Under the pieces are notes generated by a model. The model worked only from the letters and a program-made list of their open reading frames with translations. It did not search any database and was not told where the DNA came from. From a virus (lineage: Duplodnaviria > Caudoviricetes), in IMG/VR virus record IMGVR_UViG_3300049306_000006, positions 1-64,000 of that record: a stretch of DNA of 64,000 nucleotides, one strand, 5' to 3'. Positions 7,807 through 41,181 of the stretch are shown here, one piece after another. How positions within the stretch are numbered: position 1 is the first letter of the stretch; every line of letters begins with the position of its first letter. The translations under genes and the position numbers were made by a program.

Positions 7807-7898
7807 CGTTCACCTCCTACGCTAACCGGTGTAGCCAGGTTGATACGGTTTTCACCGTGTTGAGTAAGCGCGGTACTCGACACGTGGTAAGTCTCAAC

Positions 7899-16559: not shown

Positions 16560-17648
16560 GTGTTATGTATCATCGATGGTCCGGACGGTACCGGCAAGTC
16601 GACGCTCGTCGCCGAGCTCAGCGCGTCGCTGCGCGAGCGCGAGCCCGCCGCTGAGGTCAGCGTAATCCACTGTAAGAGACCGACCGGTCACCCGCTGGAC
16701 GAGTACCTGACGCCGCTGCTGGACTACCGACCGGGAGCGGGTAAGCACCTGCTCTTCGACAGGTGGGCGTGGGGTGAGTACGTCTACCCGCACCTGTACG
16801 GCCGCGTGACGCAGCTCGACGAGCCAATCCTGTGGTACCTGAACCAGTACGTTCGCCGACTGGGCGGAGTCGTCGTCTCGACGAGGCTGCCGCGTGACGA
16901 CGTCGAGCGCGTCTACCGCCAGCGCGGCGAGTCCGAGCTGCTGGCGGACTACGCGCGGACGCTCGAGCTGTTCGCCGAGGTGGCTGCCGCCTCGCCGGTG
17001 CCACAAGTGACCTATGACTGGAGCGACGAGGTGAACCAGCGAACGCGGGGAAGTCTCACGGATCTGCTGGACCTGGCGCGCCGGTGTGAGCAGACCGTGA
17101 CTCCCCTAGCTAAGTACGTGACGCTGGTCGGAGCGACTCGGCCGAGCTACCTGCTGCTCGGTGACGTTCGTCACAAGGTCGACCGCGTGACGCAGCTGGT
17201 GACACGGACGGACCGCCGTCCCGCCTTCGTGCCGTACCGCCAGACGTCGGGGCACTGGCTGCTCGAGACGTTCGTCACTGACCCCGAGCTGCGTTCCGGC
17301 GTCGCGCTGGCCAACGCTTGCGACGTCGACGACGTCTACCAGCTGTGGCGTGACCTCGGTAAGCCGCGGACCGTCACGCTCGGCCGCAACGCTCACCGTG
17401 AGGTGGCGGCGTACGCCGAGCTGCGACACGGACAAGCTTCCCACCCGCAGTATATGAAACGGTTCCACAACAAGGAGCGTGACGTCTACCGCGCCGCGTT
17501 GCTGGAGGCCCTCGAGACGAACGGAGACTGTTCACGGTGGTTGAAGTCTACGCGACCTACGGCGCCGACGCCTACCCAGAGGTCATCAACTTGGTCCGTC
17601 GCCGAGGTGAGTCCTGTGACTCACGTAACGGTCCCGTCTACGACCTAG
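16560..17648 (+). CDS. dNMP (thymidylate-type) kinase fused to a UDG-superfamily-like domain
   Basis: IIDGPDGTGKST P-loop and FDRWAWGEYVY; C-terminal LLLGD, TVTLGRNA and SHPQY resemble UDG-fold motifs. Confidence 0.75.
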   Translation: MLCIIDGPDGTGKSTLVAELSASLREREPAAEVSVIHCKRPTGHPLDEYLTPLLDYRPGAGKHLLFDRWAWGEYVYPHLYGRVTQLDEPILWYLNQYVRRLGGVVVSTRLPRDDVERVYRQRGESELLADYARTLELFAEVAAASPVPQVTYDWSDEVNQRTRGSLTDLLDLARRCEQTVTPLAKYVTLVGATRPSYLLLGDVRHKVDRVTQLVTRTDRRPAFVPYRQTSGHWLLETFVTDPELRSGVALANACDVDDVYQLWRDLGKPRTVTLGRNAHREVAAYAELRHGQASHPQYMKRFHNKERDVYRAALLEALETNGDCSRWLKSTRPTAPTPTQRSSTWSVAEVSPVTHVTVPSTT

Positions 17649-18442
17649 CTAACCTGACGATCGAGCTCGAGTCGCCGCTGAACGCGCTGCCGTTGGGCTG
17701 CGGACGCAAGCTCAGCCCGCGCATCGCCGCGGCTGAGGCGCTCCAGCTAGTCGGTGGCTTCTCCGATCCCGCGTGGCTGTGCCGCATCGCGCCGCAGTTC
17801 AAGCGCTTTCGCGAGGACTTCAACGTCGACATCTCACCGTCACCTGACCGACCTTCTCGTCTCGAGCCAGTGCCGTGGTTTCACGGCGCCTACGGCAACC
17901 GAATCACGCGCTGGCCGCAGCTCGAGACGGTCGTTCGCCGGCTGCGCGAGTCGCCGAGCACGCGCCAGGCCGTCGTGACCCTGTGGGACCCGGCGCTCGA
18001 CGCGGTCAGTGACGACCACCTGGACTACCCGTGCACCGTGGCGCTGAACTTCCGGCGCACCGGCAAGCACCGCCAGAAGCTGAGCCTGCAAGTCCTAATG
18101 AGGAGCAACGACTGCTGGCTCGGGCTCCCCTACGACATTAATATGTTCACACAGCTCCAGCTGACGCTCTGCAACGTCCTGGCGCTGGAGCCCGGCACGT
18201 ACACTCACACCGCGTGGTCGGCGCACCTCTACCACGCTAACCTGGACGCCTCGTATGACGTGACGGACAACGCCGTGACGCGAACTGTGCGTCTCGATCA
18301 CGTGACGGGCGTCGGCCGCGAGTACGACACGCTCGCTGAGGTACGCCAGCGAGCCCACGCTCTGGCGCTGGAGCCCGAGAAGCTGACAGATCCGACGGAG
18401 AGCGAGAAGTGGTACCTTGACGTCCTCAGCTCGACACGTTGA
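17537..18442 (+). CDS. thymidylate synthase family, probable dCMP hydroxymethylase/methylase
   Basis: GAYGNR, RQAV, catalytic DYPCT, MRSNDCWLGLPYD (Asp at the base-specificity position), SAHLY. Confidence 0.8.
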   Translation: MVEVYATYGADAYPEVINLVRRRGESCDSRNGPVYDLANLTIELESPLNALPLGCGRKLSPRIAAAEALQLVGGFSDPAWLCRIAPQFKRFREDFNVDISPSPDRPSRLEPVPWFHGAYGNRITRWPQLETVVRRLRESPSTRQAVVTLWDPALDAVSDDHLDYPCTVALNFRRTGKHRQKLSLQVLMRSNDCWLGLPYDINMFTQLQLTLCNVLALEPGTYTHTAWSAHLYHANLDASYDVTDNAVTRTVRLDHVTGVGREYDTLAEVRQRAHALALEPEKLTDPTESEKWYLDVLSSTR

Positions 18443-18959
18443 CGCCGTAGCGCGTCCCTCGTGGCACGAGACGCGCCTCGAGATGGCGCGCGCCGTCGCC
18501 CGGCGCAGCCTGTGCTCCCGTGATCAGGTCGGCGCTATCATCGTTGACCGTGACAACAAGGTCATCGGTGAGGGTCACAACGGACCGCCGCGCGGCTTCT
18601 TTCACGACCAGCGGCGGTGCCTCGAGTGGTGCCAGCGAGCGCAGCGAGCGCCGGTGCTGACGGCGCACCTCGGCTCAGTCAGTGAGTTGCACCCTACGTA
18701 CGACGACTGTCCCTCGCTTCACGGTGAGGCCAACTGTCTCATGATGTCGGACCGCTCGCTGCGCGCCGGTGGCACGATCTACGTCACCAGTCACGTCTGC
18801 TTTAGCTGTGCCAAGCTGATCGCCAACTCAGGCTTAAGATACGTCTACGTCACAACCGGTGAGGAGCACGCGCACCGCTCCAGCGCCGTGTCATATGATT
18901 TTCTCGTTTATTGTGGACTCTACGTCACCGTCAACGGTGAGAGGTGGGAGAAGAAGTGA
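18417..18959 (+). CDS. dCMP deaminase family
   Basis: RSLC..DQVGAII, GHNGPP, LHGEANC, VCFSCAKLI. Confidence 0.85.
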   Translation: MTSSARHVDAVARPSWHETRLEMARAVARRSLCSRDQVGAIIVDRDNKVIGEGHNGPPRGFFHDQRRCLEWCQRAQRAPVLTAHLGSVSELHPTYDDCPSLHGEANCLMMSDRSLRAGGTIYVTSHVCFSCAKLIANSGLRYVYVTTGEEHAHRSSAVSYDFLVYCGLYVTVNGERWEKK

Positions 18960-19168
18960 GCACCTGGCAGAGGTCGAGCCGCTGCGGTGAGTCAACGCAC
19001 TGTGTCGAGGTGTGGTTCGAGCCGTCGCGAGAGAAGCTAACCGTCGACGAACCGCGTTTCGTGCTCGTGCGCAGCTCTAGTGATCCGACTGGTCCAACTC
19101 TTAGGTTCACCGAGACTGAGTGGCGTAGCTTTCTCGCCGTCGTTAGCGACGGAAACCACGACCTGTGA
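18956..19168 (+). CDS. DUF397 protein (copy 2)
   Basis: WQRSSRC..THCVEV...VRSS.DP.GPTLRFTETEWRSFL. Confidence 0.8.
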   Translation: MSTWQRSSRCGESTHCVEVWFEPSREKLTVDEPRFVLVRSSSDPTGPTLRFTETEWRSFLAVVSDGNHDL

Positions 19169-20949
19169 GCAAGCTAGCCGGAGTCCAGCTTCACCGCGTC
19201 GATGACTTCGACGACGTCCAGAGCTTTCTCGACTGGGCGTGGGCGGTCCGGAGCAAGCCCGTCGGCGTCGACACCGAGTCGACGGGCTTCTACTGGCACC
19301 GTGACGACTACGTTCGCACCGTTCAGGTCGGTGACGAGACGGACGGCTGGTGCCTGCGCTGGGACAGGTGGTCCGGCCTGTTCGAAGCCTTCCTGAAGGT
19401 TCACACCGGACCGATTGAGATGATGAACTCGAAGTTCGACTACGCCTTTCTGCGCAAGGCCGGCGTCGAGCTGGACAAGTCTCGCGTTCGCGACGTCGGC
19501 GTCATGTCTCACGTTCTCGAGCCGCACCTGTCGCGCGCGCTCAAGAACCAGGCCAAGCGGCACGTCGATCCCGCGGCCAACGCGCTGCAGTACAAGCTCG
19601 ACGAGGCCCTCGGCGCGCACGGCGGCTGGACGTGGGCTACAGTGCCGTACGACTTTCAGCCCTATTGGTCCTACGCAGCGTTGGATCCCGTCCTGACGGT
19701 GCTGCTGGCGCAGCACCACTGGCCGCTGGTCCAGGAGCAGGCGCCGGCGGCCTACGAGCTGGAGAACGCCTTCCAGTGGGTCGCCCTCACCATGGAGACG
19801 CTCGGCACTCCCGTCGACGTCGACTACGCCAGCCAGCACTACGACAAGTTCACGGCCTACTGCGCCGAGGTCGAGCGCTGGTGTCAGGCCGAGTACGCCG
19901 TCAAGCCGGGCAGCAACGCCGCGGTGATCGACGTCCTGTCCAGGGCGGGCTTCGAGTTCTCGAAGGCCACCAAGTCCGGCGCCGTCGCGCTGGACAAGGA
20001 CGTCCTGGAGGGCATCGACCACCCGCTGGCCCAGGCCGTCCTGCGCCGGCGCCAGCTCCAGAAGATCGCCTCGACGTACCTGAGGTTCTACGTCGACAAC
20101 GCGGACGCCGAGGCGCGCATTCACCCGTCGATCAACACCCTCGGAGCGCGCACGAGCCGCATGTCGATGGCCGAACCGAACTTCCAGAACCTGCCGGTGC
20201 GCGGCGGCAACCCCGCGATCAAGGTGGTACGCAACTGCGTCCGGGCCCGTCCCGGTCACACCCTGGTCTTCTCCGACTTCGACCAGGTCGAGATGCGCGG
20301 CCTGGCGATCATGTCAGGTGACCCGGGCCTGATCGCCGCCTTCCGCTCGCCGGAGGACTTCTTCGTCAACCTGGCGCGAACCGTCTACCAGGACTCGAGC
20401 ATCGAGAAGTCGGACCCGCGGCGGCAAGTGATCAAGAATACCGGCTACGCCACCATCTACGGAGCCGGAGTTTCCAAGCTCGCTCAGACCGCCGGAATCA
20501 CGCAGCAGCAGGCCGCCTGGACCAAGCAGATGTTCGACGCGACGTACCCGAGGGTTCCCGAGTTCACGCAGAGCGTCTTCACCGAAGCGATGCAGAACCT
20601 GCACTCACAGGGAACTCCGTACGTTCCGTGTCCGCTGACGGGTCGTCGTCACGTCGCTGACCGCGGCAAGGAGTACGCCCTAGTCAACTACGCAATCCAA
20701 GGGTGGGCCGCCTCCCTGTTCAAGACCAAGCTGCTGGAGGCCGACGCCGCGGGCCTCGGTGATTTCATGATACTTCCCGTACATGATGAAATCATCCTCG
20801 AGGTTGAAAACACGCAGCTGCGCGACGTCATTCACACGCTGCGCAAGGTGATGAACGACGACGAGTCGTTCGCCGTCCCGATCTCCGCCAGCGTCGCCGT
20901 CGGCGAGCGCTGGGGAGAGAAGCGTGAGCTGCGAGACGGTGAGCTGTGA
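19165..20949 (+). CDS. polA: DNA polymerase family A with 3'-5' exonuclease
   Basis: VDTES (Exo I), YAALD, SDFDQVEMR (motif A), KNTGYATIYG (motif B), PVHDEI (motif C). Confidence 0.95.
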   Translation: MSKLAGVQLHRVDDFDDVQSFLDWAWAVRSKPVGVDTESTGFYWHRDDYVRTVQVGDETDGWCLRWDRWSGLFEAFLKVHTGPIEMMNSKFDYAFLRKAGVELDKSRVRDVGVMSHVLEPHLSRALKNQAKRHVDPAANALQYKLDEALGAHGGWTWATVPYDFQPYWSYAALDPVLTVLLAQHHWPLVQEQAPAAYELENAFQWVALTMETLGTPVDVDYASQHYDKFTAYCAEVERWCQAEYAVKPGSNAAVIDVLSRAGFEFSKATKSGAVALDKDVLEGIDHPLAQAVLRRRQLQKIASTYLRFYVDNADAEARIHPSINTLGARTSRMSMAEPNFQNLPVRGGNPAIKVVRNCVRARPGHTLVFSDFDQVEMRGLAIMSGDPGLIAAFRSPEDFFVNLARTVYQDSSIEKSDPRRQVIKNTGYATIYGAGVSKLAQTAGITQQQAAWTKQMFDATYPRVPEFTQSVFTEAMQNLHSQGTPYVPCPLTGRRHVADRGKEYALVNYAIQGWAASLFKTKLLEADAAGLGDFMILPVHDEIILEVENTQLRDVIHTLRKVMNDDESFAVPISASVAVGERWGEKRELRDGEL

Positions 20950-21037
20950 CAACGTGGACTAAGCACCACACCACGCTGCTGTTAGGAGTCGTTCTCGTGT
21001 GTTTCAGCGGCTGCCTCTTTGTATTAGTGAGATGTTG

Positions 21038-21250
21038 ATGAAAACAAGAAAACTAAGAGTTTTAAAGACAGCGTCAACCTGGTGGCGTATCATCACACGT
21101 CAACAAACGCCGATAGAAAAAGCACGACGTGCGATCAGGGGAGCTCGCCGCCAGAGCGAGTGGCTCGGTAAGAGGCCGTTCAGCGACAAGTACGGCTATG
21201 ACGGCAGCGCCGAGTCGTCACGTTTCGTCGGATACGATGACAAGACTTGA
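21038..21250 (+). CDS. small basic hypothetical protein
   Basis: Low-GC ORF MKTRKLRVLK... Confidence 0.45.
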   Translation: MKTRKLRVLKTASTWWRIITRQQTPIEKARRAIRGARRQSEWLGKRPFSDKYGYDGSAESSRFVGYDDKT

Positions 21251-21426
21251 GGAAGTGAGTGATTAGGTGACTGTCGACTGGAAGTGGCGCTTCGTGGACG
21301 CGGGTTGTCCGAACTGCGGCGCTCAGCGAGGTGGACCGGAGGGTCTACACCACCACGACTTAACCGTCTGGTGCCTACGCTGCGGCTGGGGCCGCAACTG
21401 GACTGACCTAGCGGTGAGGTACCAGC

Positions 21427-21879
21427 GTGATCCTAGTAGGCGTTGATCCCGGCAAGGTCACCGGTCTCGCGGTCTGGTGGTCGCCGGAGTCATACGACTC
21501 GGCGGCCGCTAACCGCGGTCCGCTGGATACCGCGGAGGTAACCGCTTCACACGTTACGCCGGTCCTACGCCGAATGCTCGACGGTCGGCGACCAACTCTG
21601 GTGGCCGTCGAGCGCTACCGCCAGACGGGACGTAAGACTCACCAACCGCACGCCTACGAGGTGATCGGCGCCGTCAAGGCGCTGTGTGACGAGCTGACTG
21701 TCCGCTGCGTCTACCAGTCGCCGTCACCGACACAGAAGACCGGTCGTCCCGAGCTGCTGCGCCAGCTCGGCTGGTTCGTTAAGTCCAAGGACGGCCACGC
21801 GAACGCGGCGACCGGTAACGTGCTACACTGCCTAGCTACCTTTTATCCCGAGACATACGCCGAACTTGTTGGCTTGTAG
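21427..21879 (+). CDS. RuvC-like Holliday junction resolvase
   Basis: ILVGVDPGKVTGLA, VAVERY, HANAA. Confidence 0.8.
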   Translation: MILVGVDPGKVTGLAVWWSPESYDSAAANRGPLDTAEVTASHVTPVLRRMLDGRRPTLVAVERYRQTGRKTHQPHAYEVIGAVKALCDELTVRCVYQSPSPTQKTGRPELLRQLGWFVKSKDGHANAATGNVLHCLATFYPETYAELVGL

Positions 21880-21935
21880 TAGGATAGACACGAGACACGA
21901 GACACGAGACGAGCGAAACTGAGAGGAGTGAACCG

Positions 21936-22145
21936 GTGAGTGACGACTTCTACCTCAAGACACCGCCGCTCAACCACCCCGACTGGCGTCCGTACGCCTT
22001 TAACGGCCACTACTGCGTCGCCGAGCGGTGGTGCCCGTGCGGCCACTGGGGCGCCGGTCGCCGTGCCACGAGGCGCGTCGACGGTAAGCGCGGTTTGGTG
22101 ACGCTGGACCGGATCGAGGAGAGCGGTGGCGATGGCGCACGCTGA
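21936..22145 (+). CDS. hypothetical protein
   Basis: GAGGAG RBS; TAGGAT -10 element. Confidence 0.55.
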   Translation: MSDDFYLKTPPLNHPDWRPYAFNGHYCVAERWCPCGHWGAGRRATRRVDGKRGLVTLDRIEESGGDGAR

Positions 22146-22416
22146 CATCCTCGACACGGCTAAGCGCCGGATCTTCGTCCAGACGGTCTGGAGCGAAAAA
22201 GAAATGATCAAGCTGGTTCCCGGCTCGTCGTGGGACAACGACCGCAAGCTGTGGACGGTGCCGCTGACGTGGCCCGCGTGTCTCCAGCTGCGCGGAATCT
22301 TCGGCCAGACGCTGACCGTCGGACCCGAGCTGACCCGCTGGGCGGCCGAGGAGCACGCCGGACGCGTCGGTCGTGCGCTCGAGCTGCGCAACTTGACGGA
22401 ATTAAATCATGACTAA
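22126..22416 (+). CDS. HARP-like helicase accessory domain protein
   Basis: EKEMIKLVPGSSWDNDRKLWTVP, like the N-terminal domain of phage SNF2 helicases. Confidence 0.6.
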   Translation: MAMAHADILDTAKRRIFVQTVWSEKEMIKLVPGSSWDNDRKLWTVPLTWPACLQLRGIFGQTLTVGPELTRWAAEEHAGRVGRALELRNLTELNHD

Positions 22417-24100
22417 GACTTATGAACTGTTCGATTATCAGCGAGCTGACGTAGCGTTTCTTGAAGTCGCAGGCAGTGCGCTCCTCGGTAATGACATGGG
22501 TCTTGGTAAGGGACCTGCAGCTCTAAAGACGATCGAACGAGTAGACGGGCTGCCCGCGCTCGTCGTATCACCGAACTCGATGAAGTTCACGTGGGCGCTG
22601 GAGGCCGAGAGGTGGTTACCGTCCGCCAAGCCGTACGTCGTCGACGGCACAGCCGCGGCGCGCAAGAAGCTGCTCAGTGCGGCCTCGCAGGACCCGAGCG
22701 CGCTCGTCATCATCAACTATGAAGCGCTGCGCGGCCACTCCCGCCTAGCGGGCTACGGCTCGATCGCGCTGGCGCGCTGTCCCGAGTGCGGCGGCAGCGA
22801 CCCGAAGGTGACACATACTAAGTGTGAGGTTCACCCGCGCGAGCTCAACGTCATTCCCTTCAAGACAGTCATACTAGACGAGGCTCACCGCTGTAAGGAC
22901 TGTCACTCGAAGCAGACTCGCGCCGCCTGGGCCATCGGCCAGGGCAAGACGGTGACGCGTCGCTACGCGCTGACGGGCACCGCGATCTCGGGTGACCCGT
23001 CCGACCTGTGGTCGATCCTACACTTTCTGGCACCGGACGAGCACCCAACCAAGACCAAGTTCGTCGACAGGTACTGCGTCCAGGCCTTCAACGCGTGGGG
23101 CGGCCTCGACGTCAAGGGCCTGCACCCCGCGACCCGTGAGGAGTTCTACCGTGTCATCGACCCGCGCTTTCGCCGAATGCCGAAGGACCTAGTCCTCTCA
23201 CAGCTGCCGCCGAAGGTCCGCTCGACCCGCTTCGTCGAGCTGACGCCGAAGCAGCGGAAAGCGTATGACGAGCTCGAGACGGGCCTGGTAACGCGGCTGC
23301 CCGACGGTAACGTGCTGGTCGCCAGCAACGACCTAGAGGCGCAGGTCCGCCTGCTTCAGTTCGCCTCGGGAACCATGGAACGCACCTTTGTGCCGCTGGA
23401 CTACGAGCGCGCCCTCCAGCTGAACCAGGCACACCGCGCCGGCGGCAAGGGTGAGCTGTTTACCGCGGCCGAGCTGGCGTACGTTCGCGAGACCGGCTTT
23501 CATCCCAGGCCGACGTACCGAATGTGCGACCCGTCATCGAAGGTAGACGCGCTGGTGGACATCCTGGAGGAGCTCGGTGACAAGCCGGTCCTGGTCTCGG
23601 CGGCTCACCGCCAGCTGATCAACCTAGCGGCGGCGCGGCTCGACAAGCTGAAGATTCAACACGGTTTACTCGTCGGCGGTCAGCAGGCCTTCGAGCGCCA
23701 GGCGACGCTGCGTGACTTCCAGGCCGGCAAGCTGCGCGTCCTGCTGTTCACGCTAGCCGCGGGCGGCACAGGCCTGACGCTGACCGCGGCCGACACGCAG
23801 GTCAGGCTCCAGCGCTCGTGGTCACTGATCGAGAACCTACAAGCGGAGGACCGAAATCACCGCATCGGCTCGGAGATCCACTCATCGATTCACTACGTCG
23901 ACGTCGTTGCTAGGGGAACCGTCGAGGAGGTCCAGCTGGAGCGCCTGTGGGAGAAGACCGAGCGCCTCGAGGAGATCAACCGTGACCGGGCGCGGCTTCA
24001 GCTGGAACGCCGAGTTACCGACGAGCTCGACGCCGAGCTCGCGCGGCTCGAGGCTCTCAACCTCGGTGAGGTCTCTCAACCTAAGGAAGGAGACGCGTGA
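22409..24100 (+). CDS. SNF2-family helicase
   Basis: DMGLGK, ILDEAH, LTGT, QAEDRNHRIG. Confidence 0.9.
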   Translation: MTKTYELFDYQRADVAFLEVAGSALLGNDMGLGKGPAALKTIERVDGLPALVVSPNSMKFTWALEAERWLPSAKPYVVDGTAAARKKLLSAASQDPSALVIINYEALRGHSRLAGYGSIALARCPECGGSDPKVTHTKCEVHPRELNVIPFKTVILDEAHRCKDCHSKQTRAAWAIGQGKTVTRRYALTGTAISGDPSDLWSILHFLAPDEHPTKTKFVDRYCVQAFNAWGGLDVKGLHPATREEFYRVIDPRFRRMPKDLVLSQLPPKVRSTRFVELTPKQRKAYDELETGLVTRLPDGNVLVASNDLEAQVRLLQFASGTMERTFVPLDYERALQLNQAHRAGGKGELFTAAELAYVRETGFHPRPTYRMCDPSSKVDALVDILEELGDKPVLVSAAHRQLINLAAARLDKLKIQHGLLVGGQQAFERQATLRDFQAGKLRVLLFTLAAGGTGLTLTAADTQVRLQRSWSLIENLQAEDRNHRIGSEIHSSIHYVDVVARGTVEEVQLERLWEKTERLEEINRDRARLQLERRVTDELDAELARLEALNLGEVSQPKEGDA

Positions 24101-24274
24101 GCTTTTTGTTCGGTCTAGTCCTCGGCGCGCTGGTCACCGGCGTCGCCGGGTACGCGTGGCTGTTCTGGTACTTTAAGGACTCGTTCAAGTGATCGGCAGA
24201 GACTGGGCGATCGACGCGGCGTACGTCGTGCAGACGGCGCTGGTGTTCCTCTGTATCCTCGGGACGGTGTGGTC

Positions 24275-25267
24275 GTGACGATCGTCGACGGCGTCCGCGT
24301 CGTGAGTAACTCTGAGCTCCAAGCGTTTAAGTGGTGTCGCCGCCACTGGTGGCTGGCCTGGTACCGCGGGCTGACGCCGCGCGCCGGCGAGAGCGTCACC
24401 GGCGCAGCGGCGACCGGTACGCGGATCCACGAGGCGCTAGCCGGCTACTACGTTCCCGACGACCAGCCGGCGGCCGACCCGCTGGTGACGCTGCGCGCCG
24501 CGCAGCAGCGTGACCTGGCGCTGCACGTCGGTCGCGCCTTCGGTCCGGACCAGCCGCTCGGCGACGAGAACGAGCGGGCGCTGACGCTGAGCGAGGGTAA
24601 GCGCCTCGAGAGCGACTTCGTCCTCGAGCAGCGGGTGATCGAGGGCTACCTGGAGTGGCTCGCCGAGACGGGAGCCGACGCCGAGTGGGAGATCATCGGC
24701 TCTGAGCAGTACGTCGAGACCGTCATCGAGGTCGAGGACTGCGGTCCCGTCAAGCTGATCGGCAAGCTCGACGCGCGGGTGCGCAGCCGGGTCACCGGTC
24801 AGCTTAGGTTCATAGACCATAAAACCGTCTCGACGCTCTTCGACCCGCTGCTCGGCCTCAACCAGCAGATGCTGCACTACGAGCTCATCGGCACGCTGCT
24901 CGGCTGGGGACCGACGACCGGCGCGCTGTACAACATGCTCCGCAAGGTCAAGCGCACCGCCGCGGCGCGGCCGCCGTTCTACGCGCGTGTTCAGATCGAT
25001 CACAACAAGCACGAGCTTCAGGCGTACTCGGCACAGCTGGCAGGTACAATTCGTGATATGATAGACGTCGAGCGTCGGCTCGCCGCGGGCGTCTCGCACC
25101 ACGCGGCGGCGTACCCGACGCCGGGCCGTGACTGCGGCTGGAGGTGCCAGTTCGTCGGTGTGTGCCGCCTGCTCAACGACGGCTCACGCTCCGAGGACGC
25201 GCTGACCGATCTCTATGAGGTCAGGGACCCGCTGACCTACTACGGTAGCAGTAGAGAAGGAGAGTAG
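24275..25267 (+). CDS. Cas4/RecB-like PD-(D/E)XK exonuclease
   Basis: SNSEL..FKWC, GTRIH, GKLD...IDHKT, C-terminal CGWRCQF..VC. Confidence 0.85.
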   Translation: MTIVDGVRVVSNSELQAFKWCRRHWWLAWYRGLTPRAGESVTGAAATGTRIHEALAGYYVPDDQPAADPLVTLRAAQQRDLALHVGRAFGPDQPLGDENERALTLSEGKRLESDFVLEQRVIEGYLEWLAETGADAEWEIIGSEQYVETVIEVEDCGPVKLIGKLDARVRSRVTGQLRFIDHKTVSTLFDPLLGLNQQMLHYELIGTLLGWGPTTGALYNMLRKVKRTAAARPPFYARVQIDHNKHELQAYSAQLAGTIRDMIDVERRLAAGVSHHAAAYPTPGRDCGWRCQFVGVCRLLNDGSRSEDALTDLYEVRDPLTYYGSSREGE

Positions 25268-25271
25268 AGGA

Positions 25272-25607
25272 GTGATTAGTTGGCTCGACACGGACCCGGC
25301 GACGTGGAACGTCGTGGCCGCGGGCTACGCACAGAGCTGCCCGGACGACTGCGGCAACCGGATCGAGGTCGGCACGCCGATCACTCGCGCCTCGGGCGTC
25401 TGGCGCCGGCGAACCTGTGTCCTGCGTCAGTGGAACGACTACCAGCGGCTCGTGCTCACCGGAACACAGGCCGAGCTTACCGCCGCGATCAAGCGTGTGA
25501 CCAGGCTCGGCGGCTACCTGGTAGTGCGCGGCTGGGACCCGCGGGAAGCGCGTGACGCGCGTTTCCGGTGGACGGAAGTGACACCGACCGAGGAGGAAGA
25601 CAGGTGA
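25272..25607 (+). CDS. hypothetical protein
   Basis: RBS; coupled. Confidence 0.55.
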   Translation: MISWLDTDPATWNVVAAGYAQSCPDDCGNRIEVGTPITRASGVWRRRTCVLRQWNDYQRLVLTGTQAELTAAIKRVTRLGGYLVVRGWDPREARDARFRWTEVTPTEEEDR

Positions 25608-25789
25608 CCGGTAACCGCAGAGAGAAGCGGCTCGCCCGTGAGCGCCGGGAGCAGCTCGGCTGCGACTACGCGACGGCGCTGCGTCAGGTTCGCGCCGAGT
25701 ACGAGGAGAAGCTGCTCGCTCGGACGCGAGCGCTGCTCGACAACGTCGAAACCGTGACAGTGACTCACGACAAGGAGTCAAGTGAGTAA
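25604..25789 (+). CDS. hypothetical protein
   Basis: GTG coupled start (MTGNRREKRLAR...YATALR). Confidence 0.55.
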   Translation: MTGNRREKRLARERREQLGCDYATALRQVRAEYEEKLLARTRALLDNVETVTVTHDKESSE

Positions 25790-26555
25790 GTCTGAGACGG
25801 AGGCCGTCCTCTCCACACTGATCCACGCGGACTCCAAGGAGGGTAAGACGACGGTAGCCAGTACGTCACCGACGCCGCACCTGGTGCTGGACGCGGAGGG
25901 TTCGTGGAAGTTCATCGACGAGGTCGGCTACCGCTCGGGAAAGCGGCTGAGCAAGCTGGCGTGGAACCCGCTGACTGAACCTGTCCCGCGCCAGACGGAC
26001 GGAGACTGGAACCTCGTGCGAGTCAACGTTCACTCGTGGGACGTTCTGGCGGCGACGTACCGCTGGCTGTCACAGGCCGAGCACGACTTCGTCTCGGTGA
26101 CGCTCGACTCGATCACCGAGGCTCAGCGTCGGTGCAAGAAGAACATCCGCACTGGCACCGAGCAGATGCAGACCCAGCAGTGGGGCCAGCTGCTCGACCA
26201 GATGGACGGCCTGATCCGCGGCTTTCGCGACCTGACGCTGCTACCTAATCCGATTCGCGTCGTCAACTTCATCTCGGAGACGGTGATGAAGGACGGCAAG
26301 TGGCGCCCGTACATGCAGGGTCAGATACGCGACACGATTCCGTATTTCGTCGACATCTGCGGCTACCTATTCACCGAGCTGCGCCCGAACGGCGACAAGC
26401 AGGACAAGGTCAAGCGCCTGCTGATCGGCGCCGGAGTCAACCCTGGCTACCTGGCGGGCGAGCGCGTCCAGGGACGCCTGCCGGACATCATCGACAACCC
26501 AAGCATCGCGGATATGCTAGCTAAGGTGTATCCCGACTTTAAGGAGAGCGAGTGA
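25782..26555 (+). CDS. AAA_24/Sak4-like ATPase
   Basis: HADSKEGKTT, LDAEG, TLDSITE, QQWGQL. Confidence 0.8.
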   Translation: MSKSETEAVLSTLIHADSKEGKTTVASTSPTPHLVLDAEGSWKFIDEVGYRSGKRLSKLAWNPLTEPVPRQTDGDWNLVRVNVHSWDVLAATYRWLSQAEHDFVSVTLDSITEAQRRCKKNIRTGTEQMQTQQWGQLLDQMDGLIRGFRDLTLLPNPIRVVNFISETVMKDGKWRPYMQGQIRDTIPYFVDICGYLFTELRPNGDKQDKVKRLLIGAGVNPGYLAGERVQGRLPDIIDNPSIADMLAKVYPDFKESE

Positions 26556-27181
26556 GCGAGAACACCATCGACTGGGCCAGCCTACACCAGGACAGCACGA
26601 CGACGCTGGAGGGGGAGTTTCCCGTCGTCATCGTGGAGGCGACGGCGACCAAGACTAACGACCAGTCGAAAGATATGATTAAGTGGAAGGCCAAGGTCGA
26701 GTCCGGTCCGTACGCGGGACGGCCGTTGTGGGGCAACTTCACGATCTCTCCCGAGTCGCCCGGCGCGATGCGCATCCTGTTCTCTCACCTGGCCGTCCTC
26801 GGACTGGACGGCGCCTTCTTTGCGGCCAACCAGCACGCGCCCGTCGCGGTGATCGCGCAGGCGCTGGTCGGCCGCAAGGCGGTCGCCGAGGTCGGCACCC
26901 GCTCGTGGAACGGTACCGAACGTGAGGAGGTCAAGGCGTGGAAGCCCGCGCTCGGCGGACCGGGAGGCGGTACCTCCCTGGGCGTTCTGGGCGGTCTTAC
27001 CGGCGGAGGCGGTAGTTCGCTCGGCGGAACGCCCGTCGCGCCGTCAGCGGGCGTCTCGCCGGCCCCAAAAGCCGCGCAGTCACCGGTCTCGGGCCCTTCG
27101 GTGTCGGCGGCAACTACGCCCGCGGTCTCCGAAGTTACCTCTAGCGAACCGTCGACTCCCGCTCCTGAGCTGCCCTTCTAG
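26552..27181 (+). CDS. DUF669-like single-stranded DNA-binding protein
   Basis: MIKWKAKVESGPYAGRPLW; low-complexity tail ending ELPF; follows the Sak4-like gene. Confidence 0.75.
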   Translation: MSENTIDWASLHQDSTTTLEGEFPVVIVEATATKTNDQSKDMIKWKAKVESGPYAGRPLWGNFTISPESPGAMRILFSHLAVLGLDGAFFAANQHAPVAVIAQALVGRKAVAEVGTRSWNGTEREEVKAWKPALGGPGGGTSLGVLGGLTGGGGSSLGGTPVAPSAGVSPAPKAAQSPVSGPSVSAATTPAVSEVTSSEPSTPAPELPF

Positions 27182-27210
27182 GCTACGATGATACATGACT
27201 ACGTAGTAGA

Positions 27211-28590
27211 GTGGTGGACGATGAGTCCACCGCTCTCTCACAGAGGAGTGAAGTGCGAAAACGTGTAGGATACGCTAAGTTAGGTCGATCGATGCCCCTC
27301 TCGCTTGCCAGGTGCGGCACCGCGGGCGGAGACGTCGAGATGATTCCGACGCTGAAGCTGCTCGCTGAGCGTCACCCGGACGTCGACTTCATCCTAGTCG
27401 GCCGCAACACCGGCGAGCTTCCCGCGGCCGTCGGCCTGCCGACTAACGTCTCCAACCCCTGGGTCACCTGGCAGCCGCTGATCCGCGCCGAGCTCAACGC
27501 GGCGGGTCTCAATCACGGAAATTTGACGATCGACGAGCACGTTCGTGTCCGTGAGATCCTCGAGGCGCACACGCGCGCGACGTTCGAGTCGCTCGACGGC
27601 CTCGTGTCGTGGCTCGGCCAGCACGGCACGACCAACACGCCGCTACCGTCGATCCAGGAACGCTCGAGGCTGACCAAACCGTACGACTGGTCGTCGCTCT
27701 ACTGCTCGTACCTGCTGTGGGGAGTCAACGCCTGGCGTGACGCGGACCCGCTGAGACGTGAGGAGGTGCTGCTGAACGCGGACCCGCGTAACTACCCGAA
27801 GTACCGTGACACGAAGTGGCCGCTGCGTCATCCCGTTCTCGCGCAGTACGACGTCGTTAACACGATCAAGCACGAGCGCTACGGCGACGCTACGGGCTTC
27901 GAGTGGTGGCACCTCGTTCTAGGTGACGACGTCGACGTCGAACCCGGTCGAGACGAGAACGAGCTCTGGCGGTCGAAGGTCCGCAGCGTCTACTCGCGCC
28001 TAGAGATCTCGGCGCTGGTTCCCGGTACGCCGTTCGGCGACACCGTCAAGTTCGATGACGACTTCGAGCGACCGCACGACCTCGGTCTCGTCATCAACGA
28101 GACCCGACGTGAGGGCGCGCTCGGCAAGACTCGTCGTCAGATCTTACGTGACTGGGTACTACCGCTGGAGCCCGCCTTCATCCGCGGCAAGTGGTCCGAC
28201 CAGTCACAGCGCGAGCTGGGTGTCGAGATCACTCCAGTTCCTGTGGTTAACTACCTAAGCTTGCTCCAGACGGCGCGCTGCACGCTGACGACGCCGTCAT
28301 CAGGCTCCGGCTGGGCGACCGCCAAGCCGTGGGAAGCGTTCGCCGCGGGCGTCGTCTGCTTCTTTCACAACGCGTATGACGACCAGGATCACATCCTCGG
28401 TGACGCGCCGCCGGAGCTGCGCGCTTTCCTGCGCGTCGGCTCGGCCGCGGAGCTCGCGGAGCGCGTCCGAACGGTGTCACGAGACCGCGAGACGTGGCGG
28501 TGGGCCGTCAAGCTCCAGCGTGAGCACTTCGAGCGTGCCGTCGCCGAGCTACGCTGGCTCAGGCTGATCGAGGAGAGGCTGGAGCTGTAG
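27211..28590 (+). CDS. GT-B glycosyltransferase, probably DNA/nucleotide-modifying
   Basis: C-terminal TLTTP..SGWATAKPWEAFAAGVVCFF donor-binding motif; located among replication and nucleotide genes. Confidence 0.7.
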   Translation: MVDDESTALSQRSEVRKRVGYAKLGRSMPLSLARCGTAGGDVEMIPTLKLLAERHPDVDFILVGRNTGELPAAVGLPTNVSNPWVTWQPLIRAELNAAGLNHGNLTIDEHVRVREILEAHTRATFESLDGLVSWLGQHGTTNTPLPSIQERSRLTKPYDWSSLYCSYLLWGVNAWRDADPLRREEVLLNADPRNYPKYRDTKWPLRHPVLAQYDVVNTIKHERYGDATGFEWWHLVLGDDVDVEPGRDENELWRSKVRSVYSRLEISALVPGTPFGDTVKFDDDFERPHDLGLVINETRREGALGKTRRQILRDWVLPLEPAFIRGKWSDQSQRELGVEITPVPVVNYLSLLQTARCTLTTPSSGSGWATAKPWEAFAAGVVCFFHNAYDDQDHILGDAPPELRAFLRVGSAAELAERVRTVSRDRETWRWAVKLQREHFERAVAELRWLRLIEERLEL

Positions 28591-29411
28591 TGGACGCGAT
28601 AATCTTGGCGGGAGGTCGCGGCGAGCGGGTCGCGGGTCTGACGGGCCCGTTCTTCAAGCCGCTGCTGGAGGTCGACGGCGAACCGCTGGTTCGCCGGGCG
28701 GTCCGCGTCGCACACGAGACTAGCGACACGATACCGATCGTCGTAACGGCACCAGCGAACACCGAAGCCATTCACGACGCACTGACCGGGTTTGAGGCAA
28801 ACCTGATTGTTCAACGTGAGCCGCTCGGCGACGCGCACGCGCTGCTGACCGGACTCCTAGTTAAGCCGAGAGGCAGTGAAGCACACGAGACGGACGAGCG
28901 AGTGCTCGTGCTGCTCAGTGACAACACGACGACGCTCGCCGACGTCCAGGCCGTCACCGCGCACGAGGTAGCCGTCGGCGTCCAGCGCTTCGACAGGTCC
29001 AAGGCCGCACGCTTCGCGCGCTTCGAGGCCGGACGTTGGGTCCAGAAGGTTCCCGTCGCCGTCGATGACGTGAGCCTGGCGTGCTGGGTGGGTCCGTTCG
29101 TTGGGTCGCGCGCCGCGGTGTACCGTGCCACGCTCGACGTCGTCACGCGCGCGTACCTGAGCGGAGATGAGGCGCTGATCGGTCCCAACCTCGGTCAGCT
29201 GGTACCGAACGCCGAGCTAGTGACCGTCGAGACGGAGGACGTCGGTACGCTGGAGGCCTACGCCGAGTACCTGCGACTGCGTCGACTCGACAGGTGTCCG
29301 CGCCACGACGTCAGCTTCAGCGTCACCGAGCGTACCGGCGTCGGTCGACGCGTCTGTCCCAGCGGGGACACGTGGTACGTTGAGAACGACGTCCTACGTC
29401 AATATGAGTGA
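28590..29411 (+). CDS. sugar-phosphate nucleotidyltransferase (NTP_transferase)
   Basis: AIILAGGRGER..KPLLEVDGEPL, QREPLG.AHA, DVGT. Confidence 0.85.
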   Translation: MDAIILAGGRGERVAGLTGPFFKPLLEVDGEPLVRRAVRVAHETSDTIPIVVTAPANTEAIHDALTGFEANLIVQREPLGDAHALLTGLLVKPRGSEAHETDERVLVLLSDNTTTLADVQAVTAHEVAVGVQRFDRSKAARFARFEAGRWVQKVPVAVDDVSLACWVGPFVGSRAAVYRATLDVVTRAYLSGDEALIGPNLGQLVPNAELVTVETEDVGTLEAYAEYLRLRRLDRCPRHDVSFSVTERTGVGRRVCPSGDTWYVENDVLRQYE

Positions 29412-29557
29412 AAACGACAAAAGAGTAGGAGACACACAGGTGAGTGACAACAAGAGGGACGAAAACAGGACAGACTGGCCGATCGCGACGGTAATGTTGG
29501 GCTTTATGGCCGCAGTGGTTGCCGTCGTCTACATCATTGCGAAGGTGTGGTGCTGAC

Positions 29558-30064
29558 GTGATCGACAAGCTCGAGCACCTCATCCGGCTGCAGCGTGACC
29601 TGCAGACGCGGACGTTCGGCTTCGACTTCGCTACGATGACGCCAGACGAGCGGATCCGGTACATTCGTGACCAGCACCAGGCGATCGTCGTCGAGCTGGT
29701 CGAGGCGCTCGACGAGGTCGAGTGGAAACCGTGGGCCCAGCCGGTCAGTCCCGCTCACGGTCGCCGGATCAACCGCGACGCGTTCGTCGGCGAGCTGATC
29801 GACGTGCTGCACTTCTGGGTCAACATGGTGCTCGCCGTCTCAGGTGACGCGACGCCGACCGAGGTCGCGGACGAGGTCTTCACGCGCTACGCGCTCAAGC
29901 ACCGCGTCAACGTCCAGCGCCAAGCCGACGGCTACGACGGGTCCTCCACCAAGTGTCACAGCTGTAAGCGCGCGCTCGATGATCCGGCCGTAGCGTGCTG
30001 GCGCCGCGGTGACCAGGGGTTCTGCAGCCAAGAAAACGTCGACGTCAACTACGTTAAGAGCTAG
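29558..30064 (+). CDS. all-alpha dUTPase/dCTPase (MazG-like)
   Basis: ELVEALDEVEWKPW, ELIDVLHF, K..VN.QRQ..GY. Confidence 0.85.
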   Translation: MIDKLEHLIRLQRDLQTRTFGFDFATMTPDERIRYIRDQHQAIVVELVEALDEVEWKPWAQPVSPAHGRRINRDAFVGELIDVLHFWVNMVLAVSGDATPTEVADEVFTRYALKHRVNVQRQADGYDGSSTKCHSCKRALDDPAVACWRRGDQGFCSQENVDVNYVKS

Positions 30065-30077
30065 GGAGAGACAGCGA

Positions 30078-30284
30078 GTGAACAGCTCTGAAGTGTCTTG
30101 GCGAAAGAGCACACGCAGCGCCGGCAGCGGTGAGTGTGTCGAGGTAGCTCTAACCTCGGACAGCGTAGCGGTGCGAGACTCCAAGAACCCGGCCGGCGGA
30201 GAGCTGCGCTTCACGCACGTCGAGTGGAACACCTTCGTCGCAGGAGTCAAGACTAGCGAGTTCGACGCTAACGTCGACGGATAA
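30078..30284 (+). CDS. DUF397 protein (copy 3)
   Basis: WRKSTRS..GECVEVA..VAVRDSKNPAGGELRF...EWNTFVAGVK. Confidence 0.9.
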   Translation: MNSSEVSWRKSTRSAGSGECVEVALTSDSVAVRDSKNPAGGELRFTHVEWNTFVAGVKTSEFDANVDG

Positions 30285-30338
30285 GTCTCGTCGTCGGATA
30301 CGGTGTACTTGCGCGGTAGACGACGAGAAGGCGAGAAC

Positions 30339-31895
30339 GTGTACAAAGCTGTCGATGTCATGGGATTTGCGGGAGGTTTCACTCTCGGCGCCGTTCAAGC
30401 GGGCTTCGAGCTCGTCGGTAAGCGTGAGCTCAAGGGCGGCTTCGGCGTTCAGAACTGTGAGAGAAATCGACACCTTCTCGGCGACGCGTGGCGAGCGGAA
30501 GCGTGTAACGCCACCGAGTGGACAGTACCAGAAAGTGAAGTACACTTTACTCTAGGTAACCCACCCTGCAGTGGCTTCAGTGTGTTAAGTGCTAAAGCGT
30601 TTCGCGGTCCCGACTCCACGATAAACAAGTGCATGTGGGACTTCGTCGAGTACGCCGCGCGCGTCCGGCCGCAGGTCGCCGTCTTCGAGTCCGTTCAGCT
30701 AGCGTACTCGCAGGGTGGCGACCTGATGCGTGCGCTGCGCGCTCGCCTGGAGGAGCTGACTGGCGACAAGTGGAACCTGTATCACGTGCTACACAACGCG
30801 CTGTCCGTCGGCGGTCCCGCGATGCGCAAGCGCTACTTCTGGGTGGCCTCCCGCGTGCCGTTCGGAATCGAGTGGCCACGTCTCGTCGAGGTTCCCAACT
30901 TGGAAGACGTCATCGGTGACCTGCGTGACCTACGCCAGGCTTGGGAGCCGCAGCGCTACGTTCGCAAGCCGTCGTGGTACTCCGTCCAGTTCCGCGACGC
31001 GAGCCGCGCCGTAGACGGTCACGTCAGCGTCGACACGCCACACACGCGTCGGACGCTCGAGCTGCTCGAGCGGACCGAGTGGCAACCAAATGAGCACATC
31101 CAGCAGGTGACTCGCCGACACTTCGACGAGCACGGTGAGCTGCCGCCGTCGTGGCAGCACCTGACGGACAAGCTCAAGGGTCGCGACTTCTTCCAGGGCT
31201 TCAACACGCCGATCATGTGGCACCCGGAGCACCACGCGCGGGTCGTCACCGGCGGCGCGCTGCTTCACGCGATTCACTGGGCCGAGCGACGCATGTTCAC
31301 TCACCGTGAGGCTGCCCGAGTCCTCGGCTTTCCGGACGAGTGGCTGATCGAGCCGCTGCGCGGAGTCCCCGGACTGTTTCTCACGTGGGGCAAGGGAATC
31401 AGCGTTCACTGCGGCCGCTGGATCGCCTCCTGGGTCAAGCGAGCCCTCGACGGTGAACCCGGCTCGCTGACCGGTGAGCTGATCGGAGACCGTGAGCGTC
31501 TGATCGACGTCACTCACGCCTGGCGGGACGTCTATGTTACAGTCAGACTCGGCACACAAACACAGAGAGCTGCCGCTAAGCGAGAGGAAAGTTTTGTGAC
31601 CGAACCAACGACCGAACCAACGACCGAAGCTTCGACCGAGACGACTGAGACCGCTCTCCGCGGTCGCCCGCGTCCGTCGGAGACGCTGGAGCGTGATGAG
31701 GTAGTCTTCAACGCGCTGACCGAGCCGCTGTCGCGCGCCGCGCTGACCGCTAGGCTCGCCGAAGCGGGTACTCCGTTTGATCCGAAGGCCGTCTACCTGA
31801 GCATCTGGCGGCTTCACCGCGCGGGCAGGATCGAGCGCAAGCGTGAGGGTGGAACTCACCTGTGGCTTCGTACCGGTGAGACGCCGGCGGAGTAG
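30339..31895 (+). CDS. divergent C5 cytosine DNA methyltransferase with C-terminal winged HTH
   Basis: DVMGFAGGFTLG, GNPPCSGFS, FESV, RKRYF, REAARVLGFP, WGKGI. Confidence 0.8.
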   Translation: MYKAVDVMGFAGGFTLGAVQAGFELVGKRELKGGFGVQNCERNRHLLGDAWRAEACNATEWTVPESEVHFTLGNPPCSGFSVLSAKAFRGPDSTINKCMWDFVEYAARVRPQVAVFESVQLAYSQGGDLMRALRARLEELTGDKWNLYHVLHNALSVGGPAMRKRYFWVASRVPFGIEWPRLVEVPNLEDVIGDLRDLRQAWEPQRYVRKPSWYSVQFRDASRAVDGHVSVDTPHTRRTLELLERTEWQPNEHIQQVTRRHFDEHGELPPSWQHLTDKLKGRDFFQGFNTPIMWHPEHHARVVTGGALLHAIHWAERRMFTHREAARVLGFPDEWLIEPLRGVPGLFLTWGKGISVHCGRWIASWVKRALDGEPGSLTGELIGDRERLIDVTHAWRDVYVTVRLGTQTQRAAAKREESFVTEPTTEPTTEASTETTETALRGRPRPSETLERDEVVFNALTEPLSRAALTARLAEAGTPFDPKAVYLSIWRLHRAGRIERKREGGTHLWLRTGETPAE

Positions 31896-34884: not shown

Positions 34885-35289
34885 ATGATTAAGTGCGCTC
34901 ACTGCAGGGATCGACACGAGACCGTCACTGAGGTTCGCCTCTGCTCGCAGGTCAAGGTCGCCGTCGCGGTCCTCGACCGCACGCCGGTGACTGAGCCGGG
35001 TATGTACCGACGCAGCGGTGACGTCTTCCAGGTAATCTGGAACAAGGCGAAGACTCACCTGTACGCCCAGCGCTACGTGCCGACGTTCGTCGCGGGTCAA
35101 CTGCACAAGTTCGAGTTCGTTTACGACAAGGGCGCGATCTTCACGCTCGATGCTGTCGACCGCATGACGGTCACCGAGGTCGGTCAGCTCGGTCGCGACA
35201 CAGGCTGGTGCTGGGTCTGTCACCGCAAGCTTACCGTTCAGAAGTCGATCGAGGCCGGAATCGGCCCGGTCTGCGCGAAAAAGGTGTGA
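34885..35289 (+). CDS. DUF6011-like zinc-ribbon protein
   Basis: CWVCHRKLT..KSIEAGIGPVCAKK. Confidence 0.75.
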   Translation: MIKCAHCRDRHETVTEVRLCSQVKVAVAVLDRTPVTEPGMYRRSGDVFQVIWNKAKTHLYAQRYVPTFVAGQLHKFEFVYDKGAIFTLDAVDRMTVTEVGQLGRDTGWCWVCHRKLTVQKSIEAGIGPVCAKKV

Positions 35290-36356: not shown

Positions 36357-36590
36357 GTGAGCGAGAGACACATAGATCTACCAGCGCTGACTAGAGCGCT
36401 ACGAGAACTAGATCACCAGCAGCAGAGAACCGACTGGATAGGAGACCGCGAGGTCGCCTGGTACTACTGGCGTGTCGACGTCGAGAGAGCTCTCAGCTAC
36501 GCCGACGGTGAGCTGTTTCCAGACTACACAAACGATGAGCTGTTCGTCTCTACGGACACCTTCTTCAGAGACGGCGAGGAGAGAAAGTGA
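36357..36590 (+). CDS. hypothetical protein
   Basis: RBS; coupled. Confidence 0.6.
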   Translation: MSERHIDLPALTRALRELDHQQQRTDWIGDREVAWYYWRVDVERALSYADGELFPDYTNDELFVSTDTFFRDGEERK

Positions 36591-39072: not shown

Positions 39073-39088
39073 GACTGCATCACCCTCA

Positions 39089-40221: not shown

Positions 40222-40227
40222 CGTAAG

Positions 40228-40569: not shown

Positions 40570-40570
40570 T

Positions 40571-41137: not shown

Positions 41138-41181
41138 GACTCAGACACCTCGCTGTCGTTAAAGCTGTCCACGTGCCTACT

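Follow-up and report, generated by a model that had tools for sequence, protein, structure and literature searches.

Does a soil phage of high-GC hosts replace the cytosine of its DNA with a sugar-bearing base, in the manner of the T-even phages, and does it activate the sugar itself? The question arises from the Caudoviricetes record IMGVR_UViG_3300049306_000006 in IMG/VR, a sequence of 98,878 bp rated complete by CheckV, of which we analyzed the first 64 kb (hereafter, the window). A first-pass annotation, made from the letters of the window, had placed at positions 16560–31895 a dispersed pathway in which cytosine is partly or wholly exchanged for a 5-substituted cytosine carrying a sugar. 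The core of that proposal came through every computational test that we ran, namely active-site residues, similarity to T4 gp56, structural match to the T4 DNA beta-glucosyltransferase (BGT), and co-occurrence of the genes in relatives. We therefore consider it probable, if well short of certain, that the early replication operon of this ~99-kb phage specifies T-even-type, pre-replicative replacement of cytosine by 5-hydroxymethylcytosine (5hmC), followed by glycosylation on the DNA.

The argument begins with a thymidylate synthase (TS)-fold enzyme of 301 residues (P0001; 17537..18442, + strand; Pfam PF00303, E-value 1e-20, 74.5 bits against a cutoff of 24.3). In an alignment of seven sequences (the window protein, Escherichia coli ThyA, T4 gp42, RB69 gp48, and three actinophage homologs), the window enzyme keeps, in ThyA numbering, the catalytic cysteine C146 (18032–18034) and D169, and carries the substitutions L143D (18023–18025) and N177D, a pattern identical to that of T4 gp42. 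The first-pass annotation had quoted the string MRSNDCWLGLPYD and had noted an Asp at the site where Asn specifies deoxyuridine monophosphate (dUMP). We recovered this exact string at 18098–18136 (+), and its last Asp (18134–18136) aligns with ThyA N177 and with T4 gp42 D179, the local contexts being LGLPYD in the window, LGLPFN in E. coli, and FGFRND in T4. At position 143 the window reads LDYPC, compared to ALAPC in E. coli and SDFMC in T4; at position 169 it has RSND, with Asp, whereas RB69 gp48 has RSQN (D169N), so the enzyme is not of the RB69 type at this site. Residues E58, Y94, R126, R166, S167, and H207 are invariant across all seven sequences, the window protein included. The top sequence match in the PDB is the CMP hydroxymethylase MilA, and a local BLASTP alignment to T4 gp42 gives ~26% identity over 77 residues.

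What these residues imply is addressed by a 2026 study (PMC13326640), which reports, in ThyA numbering, that N177D moves the substrate to deoxycytidine monophosphate (dCMP); that a bulky hydrophobic residue at 143 goes with a methyl product, and an acidic one, as in T4 gp42 and MilA, with water access and a hydroxymethyl product; and that D169N is the mark of the flavin-dependent 5-hydroxy-dCMP (5hodCMP) synthases of RB69, DLP3, RL38J1, and others, every 5hodCMP synthase tested there carrying it. Because residues 143, 146, 169, and 177 match the hydroxymethylase pattern of gp42 and MilA, which was defined by experiment, the TS homolog is best read as a predicted dCMP 5-hydroxymethylase, and the label ‘thymidylate synthase’ on its cultured relatives is probably wrong. 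MilA, an enzyme of mildiomycin biosynthesis in Streptomyces (PDB 5b6d/5jnh), has Asp at the equivalents of both 143 and 177, like the window enzyme; it differs in that its substrate is CMP and its setting an antibiotic pathway, whereas the genes around the window enzyme (dCTPase, kinase, polymerase) point to dCMP.

The same combination of genes recurs well beyond the window. We assembled 63 IMG/VR loci that encode relatives of the window's glycosyltransferase (described below), and counted upstream genes in the 37 loci with at least 9.5 kb of upstream sequence and downstream genes in the 41 with at least 4.5 kb downstream. A TS homolog is present in 34 of the 37, a dCTPase-like gene in 36 of the 41, and a gene for a methyltransferase-like enzyme in 40 of the 41. 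C146, D169, and D177 occur in every readable TS copy (33/33), and D143 is clear in 29. The gene grouping is not chance, because the set recurs in syntenic order across the 63 IMG/VR loci, one Logan contig, one contig from NCBI, and the Actinomycetia phage DSL-LC01.

Two further enzymes would shape the pyrimidine nucleotide pool, and both had been named in the first-pass annotation. An all-alpha nucleoside triphosphate pyrophosphatase of 181 residues with a C-terminal zinc ribbon (29519..30064, +) belongs to Pfam dUTPase_2 (E-value 1e-10, 42.5 bits against a cutoff of 22.9) and matches the dUTPase PHROG (E-value 2e-29). It can moreover be aligned end to end with the T4 dCTPase/dUTPase gp56 (BLASTP E-value 2e-12, 27% identity over ~150 residues), and we predict that it is a dCTPase/dUTPase analogous to gp56. 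A zinc-dependent dCMP deaminase, the analog of T4 Cd, lies at 18417..18959 (+; Pfam dCMP_cyt_deam_1, E-value 3e-14; PHROG dCMP deaminase, E-value 6e-33). The Pfam and PHROG families, together with the direct similarity to gp56, thus bear out both earlier assignments.

A third protein, encoded at 16560..17648 (+), had been described as a deoxynucleoside monophosphate (dNMP) kinase. A P-loop kinase of the thymidylate kinase (TMPK) type is indeed present, but the protein (P0003, 362 residues) is not single-domain, and the fused second domain had been missed. Its model (pLDDT, the predicted local distance difference test, of 90.9) comprises a dNMP/TMP-kinase-like N-terminal domain resembling TMPK and YorR (residues 1–183), presumed to be a 5-hydroxymethyl-dCMP (5hm-dCMP) kinase, and a C-terminal domain (residues ~180–321), the boundary falling near 17100. 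Comparison of the modeled fold, the one line of evidence for this assignment, gives the C-terminal domain the alpha/beta fold of uracil-DNA glycosylase (UDG): the domain has no Pfam match even at an E-value of 10, its profile retrieved no UDG from the PDB, and Foldseek with the entire model returned kinase matches only. Its motifs (LLGDVR, PAFxP..TSG, ANACD, and HPQYxRRF) follow a UDG-like order and are non-canonical. Searching with a profile of the domain, we retrieved 1440 cluster representatives, and of the 150 best nearly all share this two-domain architecture of ~310–360 residues; the fusion is present in DSL-LC01 and is not found in the Gordonia phages. The domain might bind pyrimidines, flip bases, or act as a glycosylase. 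The protein ends in a Ser/Thr-rich tail, seen in many homologs, whose coding sequence overlaps the start of the TS homolog by 112 nt in another frame (17537–17648); in one NCBI relative the overlap is 55 nt.

Whether the modified base would carry a sugar turns on a GT-B glycosyltransferase of 432 residues (P0004; 27292..28590, +, the longest open reading frame starting at 27211), a predicted DNA 5hmC glycosyltransferase. It has more than 700 metagenomic homologs, and an AlphaFold model for which 53 of these were aligned (pLDDT 88.8) confirms the GT-B fold given in the first-pass annotation. T4 BGT entries lead the Foldseek ranking for the model (E-value 1.8e-6), and T4 BGT tops two structure comparisons by 3 Z at ~12% identity, placing the two-lobe fold closest to BGT. 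Among viral models, a protein named DNA beta-glucosyltransferase is one of the best matches. By sequence, the donor-binding lobe of T4 b-gt gives a weak local BLASTP match (E-value 5e-4 over 78 residues), and a K-P-W-E segment that is invariant in the family aligns there with R-V-W-E of T4 BGT, a segment that contacts uridine diphosphate (UDP). The protein matches no Pfam, PHROG, or NCBIfam family at an E-value of 0.01 or below, and phmmer finds no match in the PDB. Likewise, tblastn finds none in a collection of 50,697 sequenced phages, and at that sensitivity the family is absent from sequenced isolates; BLASTP shows no significant similarity to the glycosyltransferase of DSL-LC01, to its neighbor, or to a 442-residue protein of Micrococcus phage Kurnik. 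As modeled, then, the enzyme is related to BGT in structure and lies outside the BGT sequence family; its fold, gene position, and co-occurrence lead us to predict that it acts on 5hmC in duplex DNA.

The stop codon of the glycosyltransferase overlaps the start of the next gene (TAGTG), which encodes a sugar-1-phosphate nucleotidyltransferase of 273 residues (28590..29411, +; Pfam NTP_transferase, E-value 3e-10, 40.4 bits against a cutoff of 21.2; NTP_transf_3, E-value 2e-11). Its N-terminal nucleotide-binding signature, GxGxR, is present (ILAGGRGER, aligned to ILAGGLGTR of HddC). The enzyme gives only distant matches to GlmU, AglF, RmlA, MurU, and HddC, scores far under the cutoff of every NCBIfam equivalog, and draws only generic names from the ESM Atlas; no similarity to RB69 gp53 was detected. 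Its neighbors in this genome include no isomerase, kinase, phosphatase, mutase, or epimerase. As the sole sugar-activation enzyme encoded there, it would therefore need a sugar-1-phosphate from the host, and its product could be UDP-glucose, so that UDP-glucose may still be the donor. The earlier suggestion, drawn from the dedicated nucleotidyltransferase, that the sugar is not host UDP-glucose thus finds no support here.

Between the glycosyltransferase and the dCTPase, relatives of the phage differ by lineage: this slot holds a nucleotidyltransferase in 11 loci, an RGP/GT75 protein resembling UDP-arabinopyranose mutase in 23, an NAD-dependent epimerase in 17, and a SIS isomerase in four. The slot after the glycosyltransferase is always filled by nucleotide-sugar enzymes, with one or two nucleotidyltransferases at some loci, and in DSL-LC01 a UDP-galactopyranose mutase lies beside an unrelated glycosyltransferase of that phage's own. 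The variable slot suggests that different phage lineages may use different sugars, and the pairing of a glycosyltransferase with some nucleotide-sugar enzyme inside a putative dCMP-hydroxymethylase/dCTPase module supports the view that this is what a glyco-diverse DNA modification would be expected to look like. The earlier claim that the pathway has its own sugar activation thus survives, in that a nucleotide-sugar enzyme occupies the slot across lineages, and is less novel than was supposed, RB69, DLP3, and HY126 providing precedent.

A second glycosylation cluster, on the opposite strand (37981–42924, −), abuts structural genes and comprises one GT1-type and three GT2-type glycosyltransferases, an open reading frame of no assigned function, and a TylC3-like C-methyltransferase of nucleoside diphosphate (NDP)-sugars (Methyltransf_13/14). 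It is probably a cassette for the glycosylation of virion proteins. Homologs of the second cluster also occur in relatives that lack the nucleotidyltransferase. Because of this, and because the nucleotidyltransferase gene is coupled to the BGT-like gene, we place the nucleotidyltransferase, with moderate confidence, in the DNA pathway.

The cluster nevertheless gives shape to the strongest of the alternatives, in which 5hmC is incorporated while the GT-B enzyme and the nucleotidyltransferase glycosylate virion proteins or the host cell wall, leaving the DNA with plain 5hmC or a non-sugar derivative of it. Virion glycosylation is known in mycobacteriophages, the window phage has a separate set of glycosyltransferases with a sugar C-methyltransferase beside its structural genes, and its GT-B enzyme fits no sequence family of DNA glycosyltransferases. 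We nonetheless judge this alternative improbable: T4 BGT comes first in both structure comparisons with a clear lead, the gene lies in the nucleotide and replication module and not among structural genes, it accompanies an Asp-type TS homolog and a dCTPase in nearly all loci, and the presence of the second cluster in relatives without the nucleotidyltransferase ties the latter to the BGT-like gene.

A decidedly improbable alternative concerns the product of the TS homolog, which might be 5-methyl-dCMP, as in XP12, or 5-hydroxy-dCMP, as in RB69, with the sugar on another group or no sugar at all. Asp177 fixes only the substrate, dCMP; the predicted product hangs on two more residues, by rules established on a limited number of enzymes, and similarity to T4 gp42 is low and confined to the short alignment given above. 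Against this, residue 143 is Asp and not bulky and hydrophobic, which makes a methyl product less likely; at 169 there is Asp and not the Asn of the tested 5hodCMP synthases; the same residues recur in 29–33 relatives; and the top PDB sequence match, MilA, is a hydroxymethylase. Weakest of all is the very remote prospect of ordinary nucleotide metabolism that boosts dTTP, together with an ordinary methylase making 5-methylcytosine at some sites in otherwise canonical DNA, which would suit both the GenBank labels of the relatives (thymidylate synthase, thymidylate kinase, MazG) and the supply of dUMP by the deaminase for dTMP synthesis, but which leaves unaccounted for the replacement of the dUMP-specifying Asn177 by Asp in every member, with Leu143 also Asp, the resemblance of the pyrophosphatase to the T4 dCTPase gp56, and a BGT-like glycosyltransferase embedded in the module with nucleotide-sugar enzymes.

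Replacement of cytosine by glycosylated 5hmC would proceed as follows. The gp56-like pyrophosphatase would convert dCTP and dCDP to dCMP, keeping cytosine out of phage DNA. In the best-supported step, the TS-fold enzyme would transfer the methylene group of methylenetetrahydrofolate to C5 of dCMP and add water, yielding 5hm-dCMP, which the adjacent TMPK-like kinase would convert to 5hm-dCDP and the host NDP kinase to the triphosphate, for incorporation of 5hmC by the phage's family A DNA polymerase (PolA). The dCMP deaminase would turn some of the dCMP into dUMP, from which the host would make dTMP, the phage itself being without a dUMP-type synthase. After replication, the BGT-like GT-B enzyme would move a sugar onto the 5-hydroxymethyl group; the NDP-sugar donor would come from the translationally coupled nucleotidyltransferase and a host sugar-1-phosphate, and the sugar could even be glucose. 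The resulting DNA would resist restriction enzymes and other nucleases.

The module also includes an enzyme with the fold of C5-cytosine methyltransferases (P0242, 530 residues; 30303..31895, +; PF00145, E-value 3e-18, 66.8 bits against a cutoff of 22). Relative to M.HaeIII, it keeps the catalytic motifs IV (GNPPCSGFS), VI (FESV, with its Glu), and VIII (RKRYF, with Arg-x-Arg), and these are invariant across ~45 relatives. The canonical motifs that bind S-adenosylmethionine (AdoMet), I (FxGxG) and X (GN-V), are not found. Motif I reads VMGFAGGF in place of LFxGxGG, with a family form xGFAGGF, the position of the adenine-stacking Phe varying (Q/L/M) and the first Gly being replaced by a conserved Phe; motif X reads GKGISV in place of GNAV, with a family form GKGI(T/S)V. 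Both altered motifs are conserved in the ~45 relatives. The residue aligned with the Asp of motif III in M.HaeIII is E, Q, or H in the family; that Asp contacts the adenine and corresponds to D60 of M.HhaI. The first-pass annotation was accordingly right about the PF00145 fold and catalytic Cys of this C5 methyltransferase, and wrong in treating it as a plain member of the pathway, its cofactor-pocket motifs being altered.

The enzyme keeps consistent company. Among 50,697 phage records, 18 have matches to it, and 15 of these represent 12 actinophage genomes, three of which are filed twice. In all six of those genomes that we read (DSL-LC01, Mareelih, Forza, Phendrix, GodonK, and Kurnik) the TS homolog is of the Asp type, and the methyltransferase-like enzyme accompanies two lineages of Asp-type TS, that of the window and the T4 gp42-type of Kurnik, whose methyltransferase-like gene is 42% identical to the window's. 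As a tentative and rather unlikely proposal, the enzyme might attack C6 of 5hmC or of residual cytosine in DNA through its Cys and attach or exchange a substituent at C5, and the UDG-fold domain of the kinase might flip out pyrimidines that have been modified wrongly, to read or to erase them; with the lineage-variable donor, these would make up a cytosine hypermodification family of undescribed chemistry. The protein ends (31521–31895) in a Thr/Glu-rich linker and a segment of ~110 residues that looks winged-helix-like by eye. GC content at third codon positions is 0.67 in this C-terminal part, compared to 0.76 in the core, and a 424-residue counterpart in a 78-kb Logan relative has no such tail.

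Several points weigh against the pathway of 5hmC replacement and glycosylation. A conserved enzyme with a C5-methyltransferase fold, which would need a C5 that is reactive or unsubstituted, is hard to reconcile with full replacement of cytosine. The second cluster at 37981–42924 means that use of nucleotide sugars by the phage is not restricted to DNA, GT-B folds glycosylate many acceptors, and the window's GT-B enzyme, at only ~12% identity to T4 BGT, fits no sequence family. Kinase, dCTPase, and nucleotidyltransferase alike have substrates that are inferred only. Finally, the literature that we searched contains no paper linking dCMP hydroxymethylase or hydroxymethylcytosine to actinophages; the paper on phage GMA2 holds no DNA-modification data, and we found no literature on phage Kurnik.

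Among known systems, the closest in logic is the glucosyl-5hmC pathway of T4, whose gp56, gp42, dNMP kinase gp1, Cd, and alpha- and beta-glucosyltransferases have the same enzymatic roles as the enzymes predicted here. The differences are considerable. Phage lineage and host are different, the window phage being a high-GC phage from soil whose replisome uses PolA, and sequence identities to the T4 proteins are very low; its TMPK-like kinase has a UDG-fold domain fused to it; it encodes a nucleotidyltransferase for the donor, whereas T4 draws on host UDP-glucose; and it adds the conserved, atypical C5-methyltransferase-like enzyme, while only a single BGT-like transferase was recognized.

A second comparison is with RB69, DLP3, and HY126, whose DNA, according to the 2026 study, contains arabinosyl-5-hydroxycytosine, made with a 5hodCMP synthase, a dNMP kinase, phage-encoded UDP-arabinose synthesis, and DNA arabinosyltransferases (PMC13326640). 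The window phage resembles them in having a dCMP-acting TS homolog (as predicted) with a kinase, and phage-encoded donor activation beside a putative DNA glycosyltransferase; as in RB69 and DLP3, its nucleotidyltransferase falls in a ‘minimal’ class with weak PDB matches that include MurU (4y7t). It departs from them at residue 169, where Asp predicts a hydroxymethyl and not a hydroxyl product, and in having no genes for a SIS isomerase, a kinase-domain protein, or a HAD phosphatase, the SIS isomerase appearing in the four related loci mentioned above. Other phages combine a C5-methyltransferase, a TET/5mYOX enzyme, and glycosyltransferases in a post-replicative hypermodification of 5hmC with diverse glycans (PMC8256090; bioRxiv 10.1101/2023.12.21.572611). 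There too, a C5-methyltransferase-fold enzyme and a glycosyltransferase share a phage locus for cytosine hypermodification; here, by contrast, TET/JBP is lacking, 5hmC is predicted to arise at the nucleotide level (TS homolog and dCTPase), and the cofactor motifs of the methyltransferase are non-canonical. Judged by its sequence, the system would be a T4-type pathway in another phage and host world, with a distant BGT-like family, a lineage-variable donor slot, and two uncharacterized conserved components.

The genomic setting can be summarized briefly. GC content is ~64%, a search of sequencing runs found near-identical DNA in soil-metagenome assemblies only, and megablast of the region against the 50,697 sequenced phages returned no close relative at the nucleotide level. 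The nearest annotated relatives of the replication genes are in DSL-LC01, Gordonia phages (the Forza and GodonK groups), and Kurnik, and the host is likely actinobacterial. All of the genes that the first-pass annotation had listed lie on the + strand, in a single long operon shared with the replisome, and their two blocks are split by PolA, an SNF2 helicase, a PD-(D/E)XK nuclease, an AAA_24 recombinase-like ATPase, and a DUF669 protein (Pfam). PolA, with its 3′–5′ exonuclease (19165..20949, +; DNA_pol_A, E-value 6e-65), has an identical position in all relatives.

In the whole genome we found no TET/JBP dioxygenase, and a route to 5hmC through a C5-methyltransferase and TET was rejected on that account; nor did we find ThyX or a second TS homolog, and a phage-encoded dTMP synthase was rejected with ThyX missing. 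No 4-bp palindrome is under-represented in the 99-kb genome (all observed/expected ratios at least 0.9; GATC 1.06), and a few rare 6-bp palindromes have ratios of 0.43–0.6 at small counts. This lack of palindrome avoidance fits, weakly, DNA protected by modification and is not diagnostic.

Other features of the window and its relatives deserve mention. A gene for a Prim-Pol primase-polymerase (10680–11795, −) is divergent from the replication operon, DUF6011 (34885–35289, +) and DUF932 (36587–37573, +) proteins are encoded 3′ of the lysin, and the 64-kb window contains no tRNA genes. The AAA_24 recombinase-like gene of the 78-kb Logan relative (7536–9302) encodes 588 residues, compared to 257 in the window, and has Hom_end/LAGLIDADG matches, which suggests an intein insertion. 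Kurnik (OR756649, 257–15371) encodes a dCMP hydroxymethylase very like T4 gp42, a deaminase, two glycosyltransferases, and a MazG-like gene, all under generic annotations. Other cultured phages with core genes of the module are the Gordonia phages Forza, Mareelih, GodonK, Phendrix, and GMA2.

If the pathway is as we propose, glycosylated hydroxymethylcytosine would not be confined to T-even phages of enterobacteria and would occur widely among soil phages that infect high-GC Gram-positive bacteria. The core genes, labeled ‘thymidylate synthase’ and ‘thymidylate kinase’, are carried by hundreds of relatives known from metagenomes and by several cultured isolates of the SEA-PHAGES type, and such routine annotations would need correcting. 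The lineage-variable slot amounts to a natural library of pairs of DNA glycosyltransferases and donors, and the atypical methyltransferase-like enzyme and the fusion of a kinase to a UDG-fold domain are two uncharacterized enzyme types tied to the pathway. Modification of this kind would affect the outcomes of restriction, CRISPR, and type IV defense in actinobacteria, and with them the sequencing, cloning, engineering, and therapeutic use of actinophages.

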